From: a virus | IMG/VR virus record: IMGVR_UViG_3300000976_000009 | Location: 289,144-353,143 of that record | Strand: one strand, 5' to 3' | Length of the DNA stretch: 64,000 nt | Shown here: piece after piece, positions 8,000-17,049 of the stretch | Position numbering within the stretch: position 1 is the first letter of the stretch | Layout: each line of letters starts with the position of its first letter | Made by a program: the position numbers and the translations under genes | The notes under the pieces: generated by a model | Databases searched by the model: none | Told to the model about the DNA's origin: nothing | What the model saw: only the letters and a program-made list of their open reading frames with translations

Positions 8000-8073
8000 A
8001 ACAAGTTTGCCCCAAACCTTACTATAGTTTCGGGTATGAGGTGGCTGTCCGCCTATGCAGATATGAATTGAAC
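8000..8073 (-). ncRNA. candidate small RNA A (3' end uncertain)
   Basis: minus-strand TTTGG..TATATTTG promoter (box 8078-8085), GC-rich hairpins, no credible ORF. Confidence 0.4.
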
Positions 8074-8226: not shown

Positions 8227-8410
8227 AATACAAATATAAACATTAGTTTTGACACTACCAAATAAAAAGTGATTTATTTTTAATATCCTATAGTATTAAA
8301 TTAATTTGTTTCTATAACCCCTATGAATGCTACAAAGTTAAAAATAATTGAATTAAATACTATATAATATTTGGTAGAACCATAAATGTTTCTTATATTT
8401 GTAATGTCAA

Positions 8411-9175
8411 ATTAACTTATTAAGTACTAACAATGCTAAAACAATTAAAGGTGAAGGTTTAGGATATACTACATACATTATGTACTTGTCACCATATAAC
8501 CAAAACTCTAAAGGTATTAACCTTTGTAGTCACGCCTCAAAGGGTTGTGCTAAAGCTTGTTTATTTTCTAGTGGTGCGGCTCGTTTCAATAGAGTACAAC
8601 AAGGTAAGATTAATAAAACTGAATGGTTTTTAGATAACCGTGTTGAGTTTCTTAATAAATTAGATGCAGAAATTACTGCTATTGAAAACAAAAAGAAGCA
8701 CCAAGGGCAAGACGATATACCAGTAATTCGTTTAAATGGTACAAGTGATATAACATTTGAAAAGTTTAAAATTAGAGACGGTAAAAACATATTTGAATTA
8801 CACCCAAACGTACAATTTTACGATTACACAAAGAACCATTTCAGATTTAAAAAGCAATTGCCGTCTAACTACCATTTAACGTTCTCAATGAGCGAAGACA
8901 ACAAAGAAAAGTCTATGGAGTTATTGAGCCAAGGTATTAACGTTGCTATGGTATTTGGAGTACGTGACGTAAACGATTTCCCTACTACATACAATGGTTA
9001 TGAAGTAATTAACGGGGACGAAACAGATTTACGTTTCCTAGATGATAAAAACGTTATTGTTGGACTTAAGTACAAGTATATGAGTACTAAGGGTGCTAAC
9101 AACCAAGACAATTTAGATAATAACGATTTTATTATTGATGTGTCAAGTATAAAAAAATATAAAAATGTTGCATAG
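8411..9175 (+). CDS. phage gp88-like Cys-cluster protein (radical-SAM-related); start uncertain (ATT 8411 or ATG 8480)
   Basis: Cx6Cx3C, RLNGTSD and FYDYTK motifs; frame open from 8405. Confidence 0.65.
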   Translation: MNLLSTNNAKTIKGEGLGYTTYIMYLSPYNQNSKGINLCSHASKGCAKACLFSSGAARFNRVQQGKINKTEWFLDNRVEFLNKLDAEITAIENKKKHQGQDDIPVIRLNGTSDITFEKFKIRDGKNIFELHPNVQFYDYTKNHFRFKKQLPSNYHLTFSMSEDNKEKSMELLSQGINVAMVFGVRDVNDFPTTYNGYEVINGDETDLRFLDDKNVIVGLKYKYMSTKGANNQDNLDNNDFIIDVSSIKKYKNVA

Positions 9176-9300
9176 ATATGAATTGAACAGCTTGTCAATG
9201 TACATGGGGGTTAACGCCCCCTCATCAAATTAATTTAAATAAATACTATACAATATTTGGTAGAACCATAAATGTTTCTTATATTTGTAATGTCAAATTA

Positions 9301-9546
9301 ACTAAAGTTTGGTCATGGGGTGCGCATGCTTGGGTCACACATGAAGACAAATGGTTAAGGTTTAAGTCTAATGGTCACCACCATAAAGGGCATGTATATA
9401 TAACTTTAGGTTTTGACGATACCTTTACAATATACTACACCAATACAAGGGCTAAAGTTATTGATATGGTTACTGGTGTATATGTTGGGTCTTTGATTGA
9501 TACCATTGATAACAGAATTGAGCGCATAGCAAATTATAAATACTAA
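9301..9546 (+). pseudogene. start-less ORF fused directly to the promoter cassette
   Basis: 81 open codons (KVWSWGAHAW..GHHHKGHVYITL..IDNRIE) with no ATG/GTG/TTG after +1 until codon 56. Confidence 0.55.
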
Positions 9547-9552
9547 TAATTG

Positions 9553-9590
9553 AAATGCCCATAACCATTGGTTATGGGCATTTGCTTTAT
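9553..9590. terminator. bidirectional intrinsic terminator
   Basis: AAATGCCCATAACC-ATT-GGTTATGGGCATTT. Confidence 0.8.
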
Positions 9591-9666
9591 TAAATATTAT
9601 TAGACTATAGGGTAAGTCGGAGTCTACTCTTTCACCATAGGCGACCCGTCTCTGTTTCCAACTGAC
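9553..9666 (-). ncRNA. candidate small RNA B2
   Basis: promoter box 9671-9678, terminator at 9553-9590, paralog of B1. Confidence 0.6.
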
Positions 9667-9815
9667 AATACAAATATAAGGATAATAATTCATTCCACCA
9701 AATATAACTTGAAGTATTTTTATCTTATATAATATTTGTAAATTAGTTGTGATATTATTTGGTAGTTAGATATATTATCCTTATCTTTACAGAGTCAAAT
9801 TAAAACAATAAAACT

Positions 9816-10070
9816 ATGAGTAATCCAAATTATATTGTCGGTAAATTAAGTATAGCACAAATTACATCTGATAGTTTGTTATATGAAATTGAATTAGCCC
9901 TTAAAGGTCGTGAGGCATTTATTGATAACACACCAATTGAAGAAAAGATTTTTTTAGGTGATGTTTTTCAAGCAATAATTGATGAAGACAAAGTAAGTGC
10001 AAAAGCAATGGGACAACTTGAAACATTAAATAACCAAGTTGTTGAATTTAATTATATTCAGATTATTTAA
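9816..10070 (+). CDS. hypothetical early protein
   Basis: follows a promoter-leader cassette. Confidence 0.75.
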   Translation: MSNPNYIVGKLSIAQITSDSLLYEIELALKGREAFIDNTPIEEKIFLGDVFQAIIDEDKVSAKAMGQLETLNNQVVEFNYIQII

Positions 10071-10146
10071 TTTTGTAAGCATAATATTTGGTTTATTCAG
10101 ATATTATGCTTACCTTTATCAAACGTCAAATTAAATACTATATAAT

Positions 10147-10644
10147 ATGAAAGATTTTCCAACATTTGAAAAAATAGAAACAGGGATTGAATTAAATGAA
10201 GATTTCATTCCTAATTCTAATTTATTATATGATGTTTACCACAATGGTAAAACAACAATAATGGTAAAGCTTCCCGATACACCACAAAATAAAGGTTGTG
10301 TTGGGTATGACATAGCACCAAAAACATTAATTTATGATATGGACAAACCACTTAGTGAATTTACTGGTGATGAGGTTGAAAGTATTTTAGATTACCGTGG
10401 TATGAATGTGGTTGATGATGGATTTGAAGCGGCTGATGTTTTTATGGAAATGTCACACGTAACCCTTAGAGGTATTCAAATTGAGGTAACAATGACTGGT
10501 ACTGCAACTGTTAAATTAGAAGACGGTGAAACGTTAGAAGATTTAACCGAAAGATATGGTGACATATACTTACACGGTGCTGGTGAAAATGGTTATGAAG
10601 ATAAAACTGATTTAGGTGGTGACATTACTATTAAAATAGTTTAA
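10147..10644 (+). CDS. hypothetical acidic early protein
   Basis: follows a cassette. Confidence 0.75.
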   Translation: MKDFPTFEKIETGIELNEDFIPNSNLLYDVYHNGKTTIMVKLPDTPQNKGCVGYDIAPKTLIYDMDKPLSEFTGDEVESILDYRGMNVVDDGFEAADVFMEMSHVTLRGIQIEVTMTGTATVKLEDGETLEDLTERYGDIYLHGAGENGYEDKTDLGGDITIKIV

Positions 10645-10720
10645 AAATAATTCACTTTTTATTTGGTTGTTAACTTATATTGTATTATATTTGTTATGTC
10701 AAATTAAAACAATAGAAATT

Positions 10721-10888
10721 ATGATTAGAGTAGTTATTATGTCGGGAACAGCTTACGGAAAACAAGTAGCTGATATGTCAACAGATTATGATGGTGAAAC
10801 ATTAGCAGATGAAGGTAATGTTGTCATTTATGGTGAGACAGTTGAACAGATTGAAAAGGAAACGGGACTATCTATACAAATGGTATAG
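10721..10888 (+). CDS. hypothetical early protein
   Basis: ATG at 10721 after a cassette. Confidence 0.7.
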   Translation: MIRVVIMSGTAYGKQVADMSTDYDGETLADEGNVVIYGETVEQIEKETGLSIQMV

Positions 10889-10925
10889 TCCCAACCATCA
10901 AACGTCAAATTAAATATTATATAAC

Positions 10926-11405
10926 ATGAATGCATTTCAAATCAATTTACAAACGATTTTATTCTTAACTGATAATTCAGTTTTAGGGGCATATAACGAA
11001 AACAAAAAGATGCTTGTATATAACAAACCACTTTGTCAAGTTGAAACAATGAACCATATTCTAAGTGTTCTAAAGGAGAAAGGAAAAGAAGTTGTATTTA
11101 CATACCAAACTGATTCCTTTGGGGTTAATTTCTACGACCCTAAGAGTGGTGGTACTAGTGTATTCCATGAGGTAAAAGGTACAGTAGTTGAAGGAGCAGA
11201 CCCAATTGAATACAATGATATTATACCTAAAGAAGAATTTAAAGACTTCTTGAAGGATTTAAAAGAGTTGGATGGTGATGCCTATGAAAGTGAGAGTAAA
11301 GATGCGTTTTTAGATTGTTATGAGTATTGGACGGCTAGAGGTCATAATAGATTTTTAGATAAGGTTGAACTAAATAAAATGAGATTAGAAAGAGAAAAAG
11401 CTTAG
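10926..11405 (+). CDS. hypothetical early protein
   Basis: preceded by the leader motif. Confidence 0.75.
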   Translation: MNAFQINLQTILFLTDNSVLGAYNENKKMLVYNKPLCQVETMNHILSVLKEKGKEVVFTYQTDSFGVNFYDPKSGGTSVFHEVKGTVVEGADPIEYNDIIPKEEFKDFLKDLKELDGDAYESESKDAFLDCYEYWTARGHNRFLDKVELNKMRLEREKA

Positions 11406-11469
11406 TAAAAGTTTGGTAGATTAAAAAAGATTACTTATCTTTACAGAGTCAAATTAAAACTAAAACATT

Positions 11470-11736
11470 ATGTCACAAGCAGTACAATACGCACAAGGAT
11501 TTTTTTTACAATTAGATACTCATAGAAGTGGGGAACTATTAAACGCAATGCCAGTACCTACAATGATTACATTATTGAAGTTTGGTAAGCGAATGAGCCA
11601 AGAAGCCCAAGAAGAAGCAATTGAATGCAAACTATTGGGTCGTGAATTAGAAGCAAATGCAACGGCAAAGGATGTTGGAACAATACAAAAGAACTTAAAT
11701 TCATTACAAAAAGCGTATGATTACGCAATGAATTAA
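11470..11736 (+). CDS. hypothetical early protein
   Basis: follows a cassette. Confidence 0.75.
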   Translation: MSQAVQYAQGFFLQLDTHRSGELLNAMPVPTMITLLKFGKRMSQEAQEEAIECKLLGRELEANATAKDVGTIQKNLNSLQKAYDYAMN

Positions 11737-11744
11737 AACCATTG

Positions 11745-11965
11745 AAATAAGATAGTTAAAATAAAATTAATGCGCTACTGACCGAATTAAGTAGGAGGTG
11801 GATGTATAACTAAAGCAGATACAACTGCGACTTATCTTATTTCTTTATCAATTATATGGGTGGCGAGCATAGTGATATGTTTTAATTTGACACCAAAAGC
11901 AAGGACTACGAGAATTTACTTTCGTTATAAAGTCCACACCATTCGAGTACTTGCTTTTATTTTTA
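11745..11965 (+). ncRNA. structured intergenic RNA carrying an anti-leader sequence (strand uncertain)
   Basis: stems 11745-55/11833-43 and 11895-903/11950-58; CATAG..TGTTTTAATTTGACA at 11868-11892. Confidence 0.5.
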
Positions 11966-12011
11966 GTGTGTCACAAATATAGTATAACATTAATAAAACA
12001 ATATAAAATAA

Positions 12012-12200
12012 ATGGCTAAATCAACTGAGGAAATTTGTATCCAGAAAATAGAATCTGGAATAAGAGGAATTAAAAATGGTAGTAAGACACCAAAAGAAGC
12101 AAATTGCGGATTCTTTTTAAATAAACTCAAGCCATTAAATGAGGGTATGTATGACGAATTATTCGATAAGTACGTGAAACTCATGAAAGAAAATAATTAA
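12012..12200 (+). CDS. hypothetical protein
   Basis: 62-aa ORF, A-rich leader. Confidence 0.7.
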   Translation: MAKSTEEICIQKIESGIRGIKNGSKTPKEANCGFFLNKLKPLNEGMYDELFDKYVKLMKENN

Positions 12201-12204
12201 GATA

Positions 12205-12275
12205 TTAGTTCATAGTTTAATTTGACGGTTTAACTATAGCCCCCACGCCTTTGGTAGTGGGGGTTTCTTTGTTTA
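12205..12275 (+). ncRNA. 3'-UTR anti-leader hairpin followed by a terminator
   Basis: CATAGTTTAATTTGAC at 12211-12226, then CCCCCAC..GTGGGGG-TTTCTTT. Confidence 0.5.
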
Positions 12276-12531
12276 TACTAAAAATAAATGAATTAAATGT
12301 TATATAATATTTGGTAGAATGGATTATTATGTTTATATTTGTAATGTCAAATTAAATTAAACATTAGATAAAGATATTGAATGTTTTGGGTGTATGGAAA
12401 AAATGGCACAATGTGATTGTCCCGACTATTGGTATGAGAATTGTGAAAATAATGCTGAATTTAATGAAGAATAAATTTGGATGGTATTAAATATTATCTT
12501 ATATTTGTATTGTCAAATTAAATTAAACATT

Positions 12532-13071
12532 ATGAACAGAGAAAACTTAGCATACATTAGAGAATCTTTAAATGAATTAATAGTAAGCCCAACTATTCAT
12601 ATGAAACCACACAAAGCATATAGATGCATTGCTAATGGTGATGATGTGACTATTAACGGGTTTATTATTAATATGGAAGGCTTTAATTTGTTATTTGAGA
12701 ATGCACATGAACGAATAATGCGACACTTCAATTTAATTGGTCTTATTAAAGATGGTAAACCAGTTAATAAAACTACATTCAAACAAATGGCTAATACTGT
12801 TAAATACGGTAAAGGTGAAAGTAGTTTTTATGTTGCATATTTCTACACTCACCCAAAAGAATGTATGTATAGATTTGCACCTATTTGGGGTGGTGGTTCT
12901 AAAGCAGTACAAATGACTAATTTATATAACGATTTCATTGAATTGGTTAACGGTGATATGACTAATATTGATAACGATAATATTCAATTTGGTAACTGCG
13001 GTTTACCTTTTGGGGGTTACCGAGACCTAGCGACTAGATGGTTAGACCCCAACCCAAAAAGTATTTTATAA
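12532..13071 (+). CDS. hypothetical early protein
   Basis: ATG at 12532 after a cassette. Confidence 0.8.
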   Translation: MNRENLAYIRESLNELIVSPTIHMKPHKAYRCIANGDDVTINGFIINMEGFNLLFENAHERIMRHFNLIGLIKDGKPVNKTTFKQMANTVKYGKGESSFYVAYFYTHPKECMYRFAPIWGGGSKAVQMTNLYNDFIELVNGDMTNIDNDNIQFGNCGLPFGGYRDLATRWLDPNPKSIL

Positions 13072-13145
13072 TAAATGTTATATAATATTTGGTAGATTGA
13101 AATAAATTACTTATCTTTACAGAGTCAAATTAAAACAATAACATT

Positions 13146-13478
13146 ATGAAAAATTATTTATTCGCAGAAGCAGTTAAAGCCGTAATAGTTCAACAAACAA
13201 TTGATTGTGAATTACCTTCGGATATGAATGACTTAGATATTCAAGGAATATTTGAGCAAGCAACCAAAAACCTTAAAACTGATGAGGTTTACAAAAAAGA
13301 ATGTGCAATTCAAAAGTTAGGTGAATATGTTTCAGAAGAAAATGTTAGTGAAGCCTATGAAAAATTGGTAGCCCAAGCTGAAATTAATGACCAAATTCCA
13401 GTTGATAATATTATTACAATGTGGCAACCATTAGAAGATAGATATACTGTTTCACAATTAATTGAAGAAATTAGTTAA
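13146..13478 (+). CDS. hypothetical early protein
   Basis: follows a cassette. Confidence 0.75.
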   Translation: MKNYLFAEAVKAVIVQQTIDCELPSDMNDLDIQGIFEQATKNLKTDEVYKKECAIQKLGEYVSEENVSEAYEKLVAQAEINDQIPVDNIITMWQPLEDRYTVSQLIEEIS

Positions 13479-13488
13479 CTTAAACGCT

Positions 13489-13620
13489 ATGGGAAAGACA
13501 ATTAAATTTCAGACAATACAAGTCACACAGGGTGAAATACAAGATGCAATGAAGCATAGAGTACACAAGTCTAAAAAGACTTACACCCGTAAGACAAAAC
13601 ATAAAGGTAAGGGCTATTAA
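13489..13620 (+). CDS. 43-aa basic protein with an ArfA-like tail
   Basis: own translation: ..VHKSKKTYTRKTKHKGKGY. Confidence 0.55.
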   Translation: MGKTIKFQTIQVTQGEIQDAMKHRVHKSKKTYTRKTKHKGKGY

Positions 13621-13636
13621 GTTCTTACCTTTTTAT
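13603..13636 (+). terminator. intrinsic terminator
   Basis: AAAGGTAAGGGC-TATTAA-GTTCTTACCTTTTT. Confidence 0.7.
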
Positions 13637-13715
13637 TTGTAATAAATGTTATATAATATTTGGTAAATTCAAAAGTAATGCTTATATTTGTATTGTCAAA
13701 TTAAAACAAACAATT

Positions 13716-13973
13716 ATGAAGTACCAACACTTAACAAAGAATTACCGAAATTTAGAAACAGAAATATTAGCATCTTTGAGAGATGAAATAACTAAAAGTT
13801 CTGTTATGTCTAAACACACTGACACACCAGTTATATTAGTTAATGTATTTGATTATACTGAATTAGCCATTATTAATGATAGACCAACGTTTATGGATGC
13901 AAACGGTCAACATTATAGTATTTGGGCTGATTGTACTATTGAAGATTTAATTGATATTCTAAATAAAATATAA
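13716..13973 (+). CDS. hypothetical early protein
   Basis: follows a cassette. Confidence 0.75.
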   Translation: MKYQHLTKNYRNLETEILASLRDEITKSSVMSKHTDTPVILVNVFDYTELAIINDRPTFMDANGQHYSIWADCTIEDLIDILNKI

Positions 13974-13979
13974 GATATT

Positions 13980-14378
13980 ATGTATATTATAGATTTAAAG
14001 GGTAAAGAAATTAAAGTAACTGATTTGCAAGGTGCTATTGAGCAAGCGAAATTATATACAACATTTGGTGATGAAAATTCTAAAAACAATAAGTACTGGA
14101 CACATGCACTAAATGAGTTAATGAAACTTGAAGAACCAAAACCTGTTGAGGTGGAAACGGTTATTAATGGTAAAGAATTACCCCAACCAGTAATTGAGTG
14201 TAGAAAAATATTTACAGATAGTGGAACAAAGGGTTTTATTAAAAATGATAGGACACAACCTTTATATAGTATTCATAGTTGTGCTAGGTCTGAAAGAAAA
14301 TTAAGAGATATTGACATGTTAGAAATTGGTGAAAGTACAAATAATTCGACCCCTACAAAAATAACAAGGGTTTATTAG
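13980..14378 (+). CDS. hypothetical early protein
   Basis: 132-aa ORF. Confidence 0.75.
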   Translation: MYIIDLKGKEIKVTDLQGAIEQAKLYTTFGDENSKNNKYWTHALNELMKLEEPKPVEVETVINGKELPQPVIECRKIFTDSGTKGFIKNDRTQPLYSIHSCARSERKLRDIDMLEIGESTNNSTPTKITRVY

Positions 14379-14431
14379 GAATTGTCAATTATTATTCTTA
14401 TATTTGTATTGTCAAATTAAAACAACCAATT

Positions 14432-14737
14432 ATGAAATTTACAGCAACTAAAACATTCAATTTAGAAGTAATAGGAGATATACATTTCAAGTTTAACAAT
14501 AAAGGTAGAAAACCTAAAGGTAAAGTTATTCTTGTTCAAGATGTGAATATTACTACTATGAGATTAAGTATTACTAAAGAAACTGAAAAAATGTTAATGA
14601 AAGAGATGAAAACGAAAGGCTCTGATTTATTAACAGATGGTAGATTATTTTACACAACATTTGGTGATGCAATAGGTGAAATTAAACACCCACAATTTCA
14701 AAAAGAATTAGAATTACACCAAGAATTATATTCATAA
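14432..14737 (+). CDS. hypothetical early protein
   Basis: follows a cassette. Confidence 0.75.
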   Translation: MKFTATKTFNLEVIGDIHFKFNNKGRKPKGKVILVQDVNITTMRLSITKETEKMLMKEMKTKGSDLLTDGRLFYTTFGDAIGEIKHPQFQKELELHQELYS

Positions 14738-14743
14738 CATGAT

Positions 14744-14882
14744 AAACCATTCGTCTAGGGGTTAGGACATTGCGAAGGGTTGAAACACGGGTTCGAATCC
14801 CGTAATCTAATTTATTAGGTTTCGTCTAGGGGTTAGGGCACAGCGAGCGGCAAAAACACAGGTTCGAATCCTGTATGGTTTA
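14744..14882 (+). ncRNA. two-headed tRNA(Glu)-like RNA without an anticodon
   Basis: two D arms, two TTCGAAT T arms, cross-paired acceptor and anticodon stems. Confidence 0.8.
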
Positions 14883-14909
14883 CAAAAATAATTGATTAAA
14901 TAAAAAATT

Positions 14910-15113
14910 ATGAAAAGATTTATTGTTAGTTTTATTATTAATATAGTTGATGAAGATGGTATTGAAGTCGGTGAAGAAAATATTGATGTAGATATTTTTG
15001 GTACTGATATTAATGATGCAATTGCTAATGCTGATAAAAATATTAGAGAACATAATACAGAATGGGAAGATTTTTCATTTGATGTTTTAGATGTTGAAGA
15101 AATAATTGATTAA
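14910..15113 (+). CDS. small, very acidic protein
   Basis: 67 aa, strongly D/E-rich. Confidence 0.7.
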   Translation: MKRFIVSFIINIVDEDGIEVGEENIDVDIFGTDINDAIANADKNIREHNTEWEDFSFDVLDVEEIID

Positions 15114-15149
15114 AAATTAGGATAATTGAAATAATTTCATTATCTTTAT

Positions 15150-15612
15150 AGTCCGAGACAAAAATATCTAGATAGACCACTAGGAGCCCGTCATAATAGA
15201 GGTAGTAACGGCACCCCAAATAGGGTGATAGAATAAAGTACGCAAGCCAGCAGACGTGCTGGACTAGGTAAGCGGTTGGGTTACTACCAATGTATGTGGG
15301 TTCGAGCCCCATCTATTCTACGATAAGTTTAGGGTACCATACTATAAACCCTACGGTACCAGTAACGCATGCGTGGAGTGTGTGAAGCTGGTACCACTTT
15401 AAAAGCATTGAGAGTGGAGCGAGGGAGTACTGAACTACAGTCTAAATACTGGCTGGGGAAGCGAAACACCCGCCACTCTCAAAAGTATATCTTAGGGCAC
15501 CTTATGTGCACCACAGATAAAAATACAATGCAGCTGGTTACTTCATTGTTTATTGGTTATAGTGCCCCTAGTGTAGTTTTGGTTAGCTGCGATACTAGGG
15601 GCATTTCTTTTT
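15150..15612 (+). ncRNA. ~460-nt structured RNA containing a tRNA-like domain (15230-15320)
   Basis: GC-enriched, upstream TATCTTTA promoter box, many stems, terminal hairpin plus U-tract. Confidence 0.65.
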
Positions 15613-15657
15613 ACAAATAAATTTGGATTATATTAAATATTATAGTATATTTGTTCT

Positions 15658-15813
15658 ATGACAAAGAAAGCACAAGCAAGACTAGCCGAATTAAAGAAGC
15701 AAGAGCGAAGGTTATTCGATACGTACAAAACACGTAGGTCTAAAAAAGATAAAGCCGAGCACCTAGAAGAAATGGCTAAGTGCATACGTGAGCAAATGAT
15801 TTATGAAAAATAA
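15658..15813 (+). CDS. 51-aa basic protein, probably leaderless
   Basis: ATG 4 nt after TATATTTG. Confidence 0.65.
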   Translation: MTKKAQARLAELKKQERRLFDTYKTRRSKKDKAEHLEEMAKCIREQMIYEK

Positions 15814-15876
15814 GTCTTAAATTATTTGGTTATTAACTTATATTGTATTATATTTGTTATGTCAAATTAAAACACT

Positions 15877-16173
15877 ATGGATTACAGAGCAAAGAAATAT
15901 TATCGTAAGCAATTCCAAATATGGAAAGCAAAAGTAAGAGCACATTTACCTACCTTAGCAATTAAGTTTTATGAAGCAAAACTAAATGGGGTAAAGATTG
16001 ATGAACGAACAGAACGTCAATTAGGTAGAGTAATTAACGATATTAATAGCTACGAATACTCATTAGGTATTGATAGTACTAGTGAAATTGGCTTACGTGT
16101 TTTGTTAGAAATTGATGTAACAGAATTATTTGAATTTGTAAATAAAAAACTCCCAACCTTAAATACCATATAG
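15877..16173 (+). CDS. hypothetical early protein
   Basis: follows a cassette. Confidence 0.75.
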   Translation: MDYRAKKYYRKQFQIWKAKVRAHLPTLAIKFYEAKLNGVKIDERTERQLGRVINDINSYEYSLGIDSTSEIGLRVLLEIDVTELFEFVNKKLPTLNTI

Positions 16174-16174
16174 T

Positions 16175-16354
16175 ATGAGCCATATTAATGAAGATTGTGA
16201 GAATATAGGGATATACGGAAAGAACAAGGACGGAACCCAAAGAGAATGTGGTGATATGTTTGACTGCTGTGATTGTGGCAACACAGAAGACGGTTGTGGT
16301 TGTTCATATTGTTTTAGTTGCAATGCTTGTGAGACGTGTACTGATGTTGATTAA
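16175..16354 (+). CDS. 59-aa Cys-rich peptide (11 Cys)
   Basis: own translation; starts 2 nt after the previous stop. Confidence 0.65.
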   Translation: MSHINEDCENIGIYGKNKDGTQRECGDMFDCCDCGNTEDGCGCSYCFSCNACETCTDVD

Positions 16355-16455
16355 GTACACATTTGCATAGGTGCGTAAAAGAAATATAGTATAATATTTG
16401 GTAAATTCAATTATTATGTTTATATTTGTATTGTCAAATTAAAACAATAGAAACT

Positions 16456-16806
16456 ATGGCTAAGAAAACATACAAAGAAATTAAACACGTACAATTCTAT
16501 AAAGATAAGTCGTGCAAAATAATTAACGGTGGTGCAGTACACGACCTTAGAGTATTCCCAAAATTTAAAGCACAAGTGATTAATGCTTACGGTGGTGTGT
16601 TCGGAATGGCTCACAAGAGCAATAAGAATGTCGTTAGTAAGGTTGTAACGTGTCACGTTAACGGTAGAAGTGAATACTATTACCAATTAGTTGTTGAGGG
16701 TGTTGTTGCTTATTTTAAATTACTTAACACAAACCTTTATGATTTCGATTCATTAAAAGAATGTATTGAGTATGATGAGGTAAAATTTGAAGAGTATGAA
16801 GGATAA
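16456..16806 (+). CDS. hypothetical early protein
   Basis: ATG at 16456 after a cassette. Confidence 0.75.
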   Translation: MAKKTYKEIKHVQFYKDKSCKIINGGAVHDLRVFPKFKAQVINAYGGVFGMAHKSNKNVVSKVVTCHVNGRSEYYYQLVVEGVVAYFKLLNTNLYDFDSLKECIEYDEVKFEEYEG

Positions 16807-16981
16807 AACACCACCAATAAAAGACTGGACTAACGAAAGAGTTAATAAAATATTCGACTACCATTTAGATGATATGCACCCACTTGACCGATTAACAGCA
16901 AGTGACAAATATACTACGGTAGAACAAAAAAGAAATTTTTTAATTGAAGAAGAAAAAAAGTTTGTAGAAAGTTTCAAATAA
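16796..16981 (+). CDS. hypothetical protein
   Basis: overlapping start. Confidence 0.65.
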   Translation: MKDKTPPIKDWTNERVNKIFDYHLDDMHPLDRLTASDKYTTVEQKRNFLIEEEKKFVESFK

Positions 16982-17049
16982 ATTTGGTAAAACCATAAAT
17001 GTTTATTATATTTGTAATGTCAAATTAATAATAACAAAAACAAAAAACT

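Follow-up and report, generated by a model that had tools for sequence, protein, structure and literature searches.

The two reverse copies of a shared leader that precede terminator-like hairpins in the phage genome analyzed here are a real, selected feature. The favored reading, to which a probability of roughly 0.5 is assigned from the sequence, is that they represent two 3'-end antisense modules that would base-pair with the initial 10-14 bases of 15 tagged messages, block ribosome loading and repress the whole set in trans. The underlying pairing of the tails with the tag at transcription position +1, at the level of RNA, appears highly probable. The window denotes the complete stretch of DNA under study, which comprises the final 64 kb of a complete virus record of 353,143 bases.

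The window contains genes for a T4-type terminase, portal, head protease and major head protein, the best named capsid matches being about 40% identical, and three matches to sigma-70 region 2 were detected in the phage genome. Since the phage promoters follow the Bacteroidota pattern TTTG ... TAnnTTTG (PMC7366714), the host presumably belongs to the Bacteroidota; a scan for sigma-70-type promoters yielded matches at chance level. The expectation of about 15 mRNAs with one leader agrees with the sequence, in which the tag GTCAAATTAA occurs 15 times in forward orientation in the whole genome, with all copies located within positions 8406-17019 of the window (starts at 8406, 9292, 9794, 10125, 10698, 10904, 11448, 12346, 12512, 13124, 13695, 14411, 15861, 16433 and 17019). 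They define a plus-strand island (8406..17028) in which the AUG is mostly located at +21 to +24 and most of the tags head short genes of unassigned function. Thirteen of the 15 tags are located four bases behind a -7 box of the form TAnnTTT[GA]; the box precedes the tag at 10125 by six bases and none was found for 10904. An ATG-led ORF begins at the offset of the tag in 16 of 235 promoter-like sites, compared with 0-3 at 11 other offsets. Such ORFs are taken to be leaderless messages whose first base is +1, which places the tag at what is probably the extreme 5' end of the transcripts, and we infer that its G corresponds to transcription position +1. The 16 sites that look leaderless genome-wide include window positions 15658 and 17986.

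A contig comparison suggests that the tags at 8406 and 9292 are assembly collapses of the 10698-type leader. Other letters are present in the contigs between this leader and window positions 8406-8414 and 9292-9301, and the starts of the genes behind both tags, one of them a GP88-family gene, appear to be affected too. Blastn of the island returned only scraps of 36-56 bases and no close named relative, and no viral relatives of the island proteins were found. A second leader class, GTCATTAATTAAAACC, is present outside the window at genome positions 261,066-284,199 in four copies five bases behind a -7 box, along with shorter variants; no reverse copy of it was found in this genome, and element 1, the first of the two anti-leader elements, pairs with some leaders of this class at -15 to -18 kcal/mol. 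Minus-strand promoters at window positions 8073, 8226 and 9666 lead into units in which no ORF is obvious, and about 24 nearly identical first bases are common to the units from 8226 and 9666. Additionally, two similar short repeats with GGTTCGAATCC stems resembling tRNA arms were observed at 14740-14880, where no tRNA was called.

The original prediction had named two reverse-orientation copies of the leader, both in 3' non-coding regions and each followed on the plus strand by a stem and a U-tract, and this description holds for the whole 353,143-base genome. Both strings, CATAGTGATATGTTTTAATTTGACA at 11868-11892 and CATAGTTTAATTTGAC at 12211-12226, were recovered, and the minus-strand ORFs across the elements comprise 12 and 2 codons, as had been claimed. 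Simulation of the 8.8-kb island with an order-2 Markov model produced one reverse 11-mer in 19 of 2000 runs and never two (0 of 2000), and among 2369 island windows scanned for duplexes the elements ranked first and second (z -8.1 and -6.6; next -4.1). In both source runs the contigs cover 11431-13135 and show no differences, these runs being possibly the source of the window itself and therefore not independent of it.

The transcript carrying element 1 would be driven by a Bacteroidota-type promoter on the plus strand (11412..11443; TTTG ... TATCTTTA; consensus in PMC7366714). It begins with the tagged leader at 11448..11472, the predicted cis partner of the element, and its unit is headed by an 88-aa ORF without an assigned family (11470..11736); an ORF judged similar by eye heads the element-bearing unit of the metagenome locus L338. 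The 3' untranslated region contains a branched stem (11744..11845), a possible processing site that is not kept in the loci L344 or L338, followed by the 5' arm of a predicted pseudoknot (11856..11863), which is complementary to the terminator loop at 11934-11942. Anti-leader 1 (11868..11892) overlaps a small predicted hairpin (11866..11881) whose 5' arm contains the anti-AUG letters, and it precedes a predicted terminator-like stem of 13 pairs with a 38-nt loop and a U-tract (11895..11964). The ORF of a 62-aa helical protein (12012..12200), which is without an early-type promoter of its own, separates the two elements. Anti-leader 2 (12211..12237) forms a weak hairpin with UGAC, complementary to +1 to +4, in the loop and is followed by an intrinsic-terminator-like hairpin with a U-tract (12238..12274). 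All of these features are located on the plus strand. The nearest upstream tagged start is 434 bases away from element 1 and 769 bases from element 2.

According to fold prediction, UGAC of element 2 is unpaired at 0.97-0.99 and the seed of element 1 is only partly open. Comparison with L344, which carries homologues of both elements, revealed three double changes and one repaired mismatch in the terminator stem of element 1. In eight large-loop elements, the upstream arm reached -14.1 kcal/mol with its own terminator loop and -10.7 kcal/mol with the loops of the others (65 of 20000 permutations), and this preference supports the view that element 1 likely contains a pseudoknot. A role of element 1 as target-sensing attenuator was rejected, as the terminator stayed intact in all four loci folded with an occupied seed. 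The 62-aa protein belongs to a conserved, unnamed family of 218 proteins, which follows element 1 in the window, L344, L338 and L361 and precedes the element in L333. In structure comparisons it represents a generic helix bundle (best Z 8.6, to designed miniproteins) and gave no usable Atlas match. Searches assigned no family to the 88-aa and 62-aa ORFs or to the partner ORFs of the DUF5053 genes described below. Rfam yielded no match in the window (best E 0.28-0.76 for 11700-12320, far below threshold) and a single, unrelated match in 19 related loci.

Element 1 forms 14 contiguous pairs with seven of the 13 promoter-led leaders and 13 with its own leader, and element 2 reaches 14 on those at 12346 and 12512. 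The mean duplex energies were -18.3 kcal/mol for element 1 on tagged starts versus -6.7 on 222 other starts, and -13.8 versus -4.4 kcal/mol for element 2; 17 and 2 of the 222 non-tagged starts, respectively, reached the weakest tagged value. With respect to the proposal that the antisense RNAs cover the region from +1 to the AUG, pairing to the shared 5' end is supported by these data. The AUG part is weaker, since CAUA constitutes the paired arm of the small hairpin, and the anti-AUG portion of element 1 may be a by-product of this hairpin. Nor is it a general trait, as it is missing from the elements of the related phage G006 and of the loci L333, L336, L347 and L363.

Forward and reverse copies together constitute inverted repeats, and they might serve DNA inversion or cassette shuffling instead of RNA pairing. 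The contig graphs indeed break at the repeats, and a comparison of G.U with A.C wobbles gave 7 versus 5, which does not distinguish RNA from DNA pairing. Against this stand the absence of true inverted states from 89 distinct DUF5053 genes (the sole pattern match lies at a stop codon, not beside the element), the absence of a strand-change joint from the contigs of two runs, which drop rare forms, and the free variation of the repeat sequence between operons. DNA rearrangement is accordingly regarded as very improbable.

Pairing of the RNA tails is further addressed by related loci. These were collected by means of the tag, so that its constancy between phages is partly built in; within phages the tag is fixed in 13 of 13 and 24 of 28 cases. 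The 110 metagenome loci contain 17 promoter-less reverse copies, none of which is located inside an ORF of at least 60 aa, and a terminator directly follows 15 of the 17, compared with 8 of 400 random places. A reverse copy was seen in nine of 31 loci with at least two tags, many of the 31 being fragments, and L339 contains nine tags and no reverse copy. The genomes G006 and G007, whose overlap lies at one leader, jointly comprise about 26 tags and two reverse copies; the flanking genes are unrelated. The elements of L347, L333 and L336 are units running from promoter to terminator that contain no ORF above 21 codons. A tag search of a genome collection (125 distinct leaders) detected a reverse copy downstream of three leaders and upstream of three, so that a tag by itself is no predictor of a tail. 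A search pattern derived from the two elements matched 109 viral loci, none of them with a tag array.

The check on co-variation of leader and anti-leader that the original prediction had proposed gave support in one phage, G008, and in the DUF5053 operons, and a divided result in another phage, G002. The tag of G008 (MCP 77% identical) is GTAATCAAAA, with 12 exact copies among 13 promoter-led GTAATCA starts. This genome contains a reverse copy of its own tag before a terminator, and this copy is the top match with its own leaders (z -8.1), not with those of other phages. In G002, a third tag class was identified with candidates in or before hairpins, the best z being -7.2 in one run and -4.5, within the shuffled controls, in another. 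No tag class was found in G004 and G005, and five further fragments did not reach an island.

Among the other loci, five (L223, L234, L259, L261 and L264) have a second tag in the same direction right after the terminator, about 310-390 bases behind the promoter-led tag. In a gut-type element from a Paludibacteraceae MAG (L460), tagged genes form an array and a reverse copy lies ahead of a terminator. The best antisense match of the tag arrays in L328, L329 and L386 is a non-coding variant one base short.

The tag search also identified two-gene units that consist of a small ORF, a DUF5053 (PF16476) gene, a reverse copy just past the stop codon and a terminator. The leaders of these loci vary, with 24 different first 10-mers. 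The viral set comprised 80 loci, of which 8 were without the search motif; 59 were left after removal of duplicates, and exclusion of 6 without a GT-led promoter resulted in 53 loci with 32 distinct leaders. Leader and tail of the same locus matched over at least 8 bases in 22 of the 32 leaders, compared with 40 of 992 cross pairs (0 of 20000 permutations), and the own leader was the best or tied partner of the tail in 24 of 32. The result was replicated in bacterial genomes (26 loci, 15 usable genes, 14 distinct), with own matches in 6 of 14 compared with 5 of 182 cross pairs (0 of 20000 permutations); some DUF5053 subfamilies lack the match. Sampling of 151 genomes from one Bacteroidota family revealed DUF5053 in 19, and it was also present in the B. 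thetaiotaomicron control genome. The pseudoknot was rejected as a general DUF5053 feature (18708 of 20000 permutations, 11 loci). In one subfamily (L634, L636 and L195-type loci), a short upstream arm is complementary to the terminator loop. No DUF5053 match was found in the phage genome at an E value of 10, and the link between the phage and the operons is consequently one of design. This one-to-one design with co-variation of leader and tail is newly described here, and a literature search on DUF5053, which covered mainly non-subscription papers, gave no match. It is likely the cis version of the phage module.

Element 1 terminates a transcript that itself begins with the tag at 11448, and it is predicted to fold onto that tag in cis. 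The tails might accordingly act by fold-back only, each closing on the 5' end of its own transcript as a panhandle in the manner of type I toxin messages, with the other tagged messages being bystanders that share a strong promoter start. Element 1 pairs with its own leader at a probability of 0.99-1.0 in the predicted fold of the 523-nt transcript 11448-11970, the stand-alone units likewise close on themselves, the DUF5053 tails prefer their own leaders and aapA provides a precedent (PMC6733600). The partner rankings point in the other direction. The nearest upstream tagged start ranks only 4/14 for element 1 and 3/14 for element 2, 25/26 and 14/26 in the joined G006 and G007, 10/10 in L363, 5/6 in L347, and 2/3 and, three times, 2/2 in the others; it ranks first in L336 (1/6), where the element has its own promoter, and in L338 (1/3). 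Two reverse copies are located behind one tagged start in the window and in G006, with a like pair in L344, and the second copies are surplus to fold-back. Moreover, the units without ORFs leave nothing to regulate in cis, and in L321, L368 and L375 the tail lies at the end of a unit for which the nearest promoter gives a mismatched form of the tag, although a tagged start might reach it by read-through. These low own-leader ranks, surplus copies and ORF-less units, together with a tag that is constant within phages but takes 24 forms in the DUF5053 operons, favor trans action on many messages, which we infer for the phage set, and exclusive action in cis is considered unlikely.

Trans action carries requirements of its own. 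The stand-alone units L347, L333 and L336 mask their seed with 11-12 or more predicted pairs and element 1 is closed on its own message, so that trans action would need processing or strand exchange. It also counts against this reading that one or two sources of tails must outnumber 15 promoters.

The sign of the effect is related to the reach of the duplex. In Flavobacterium, A-12/A-13 and low structure favor initiation (PMC6847099). The contiguous duplex in the window ends at a median of 10 bases before the AUG, can extend over the AUG and, as computed for the 21-24-base leaders, covers the A-rich stretch around -12/-13, which argues for repression. In long-leader phages it ends at a median of 19-24 bases before the AUG, which leaves room for protection; the elements of short-leader and long-leader phages mostly fit their own leader type. 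The duplex might thus shield the 5' end from decay and raise the output of the early genes. Such an effect would agree with pairing anchored at +1 whatever the leader length and with FasX of Streptococcus pyogenes, which stabilizes the ska mRNA through a short helix in the 5' leader of this separate message (PMC3328962). It is difficult to reconcile with the window, where the duplex approaches or covers the AUG and structure lowers initiation, and protection is judged rather improbable.

A lone minus-strand -7-type box at 11974..11981 had suggested that the first element could be a decoy. The tag would then be bound, as DNA or RNA, by a protein of the phage or of the host, for which the reverse copies or closed RNAs would provide sites or decoys, possibly by way of a minus-strand transcript from this box. 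Such a box is located behind element 1 in three of four loci (window, L344 and L338), the 62-aa family accompanies the element in five loci and self-closed units without ORFs would suit a mimic. However, the box of the window has no -33 box and its position shifts between loci, a fixed protein site leaves tails that track 24 different leaders unexplained, and orientation and terminator position are consistent with plus-strand RNA. The proposal is kept as a rival, albeit one of low probability.

Repression in trans might proceed in five steps. The messages would start at the G of the tag from host sigma promoters, and the same promoter class would yield an RNA ending in element 1 and, by read-through, one ending in element 2. 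The terminator hairpin, joined in element 1 by the pseudoknot, is predicted to stabilize the tail and to expose the seed, into which a free 5' end could thread as in RNA-OUT of IS10. By analogy, a duplex over the A-rich -12/-13 stretch would reduce initiation. Finally, and this is the weakest step, tails accumulating after the first wave may act as a delayed brake on the early genes.

Individual components of this scheme are found in known systems. The PeSL cassettes of T4-type phages contain a near-identical early promoter array before small variable genes, as does the island; to our knowledge, a reverse copy before terminators is not part of their description. The target of C4, an antisense RNA of phage P1, is a single immunity operon of a temperate phage. 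As proposed for the elements, C4 is made by a phage and acts on phage genes away from its own locus (PMC8201110). The IS10 pair RNA-OUT/RNA-IN resembles the elements at the pairing step, but RNA-OUT is encoded opposite its single target, whereas the phage elements sit elsewhere, at 3' ends before terminators, with about 15 possible targets (PMC4737173). In the aapA and hok toxin mRNAs the 3' tail folds back on the 5' end of the message that carries it, as predicted for the DUF5053 operons and the 11448 transcript; the toxin tail hides a Shine-Dalgarno sequence and an antitoxin RNA overlaps, whereas the phage and DUF5053 units have no such sequence and their seed is the +1 tag (PMC6733600). The phage elements belong neither to this class nor to that of RNA-OUT. 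Such 5'-3' pairing within one message, a trait of type I toxin-antitoxin systems, is predicted for 11448-11970 and co-varies in the DUF5053 operons, and complementarity to separate messages kept by co-variation, a trait of trans-acting sRNAs, was found in G008. GibS of Bacteroides thetaiotaomicron pairs at start regions without a Shine-Dalgarno sequence and represses without Hfq, but it is a host metabolic sRNA with a 5' seed, few unrelated targets and no shared tag (PMC7366714). The anti-leader tail design is not covered in the available text of a 2026 jumbo-phage review (PMC13282480) or of bioRxiv 10.64898/2026.09.22.753630, and no description of it was found in a literature search of mainly non-subscription papers.

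Taken more broadly, though only tentatively, the Bacteroidota may possess a re-programmable RNA module for reading the ten bases at the start of a transcript, with a one-to-one form in the DUF5053 operons and a barcode regulon in jumbo phages, in which one or two pseudoknotted tails and the 62-aa protein would time 15-27 early genes together. If true, a shared +1 tag and a dedicated antisense tail would provide lytic phages with a simple regulon-wide shut-off of early genes in a phylum that lacks Shine-Dalgarno sequences, Hfq and ProQ. The idea is accessible to existing Flavobacterium and Bacteroides reporters, and the DUF5053 link provides a cultured-host model, the 24 natural tag and tail variants of these operons being potential orthogonal parts for the engineering of gut bacteria.
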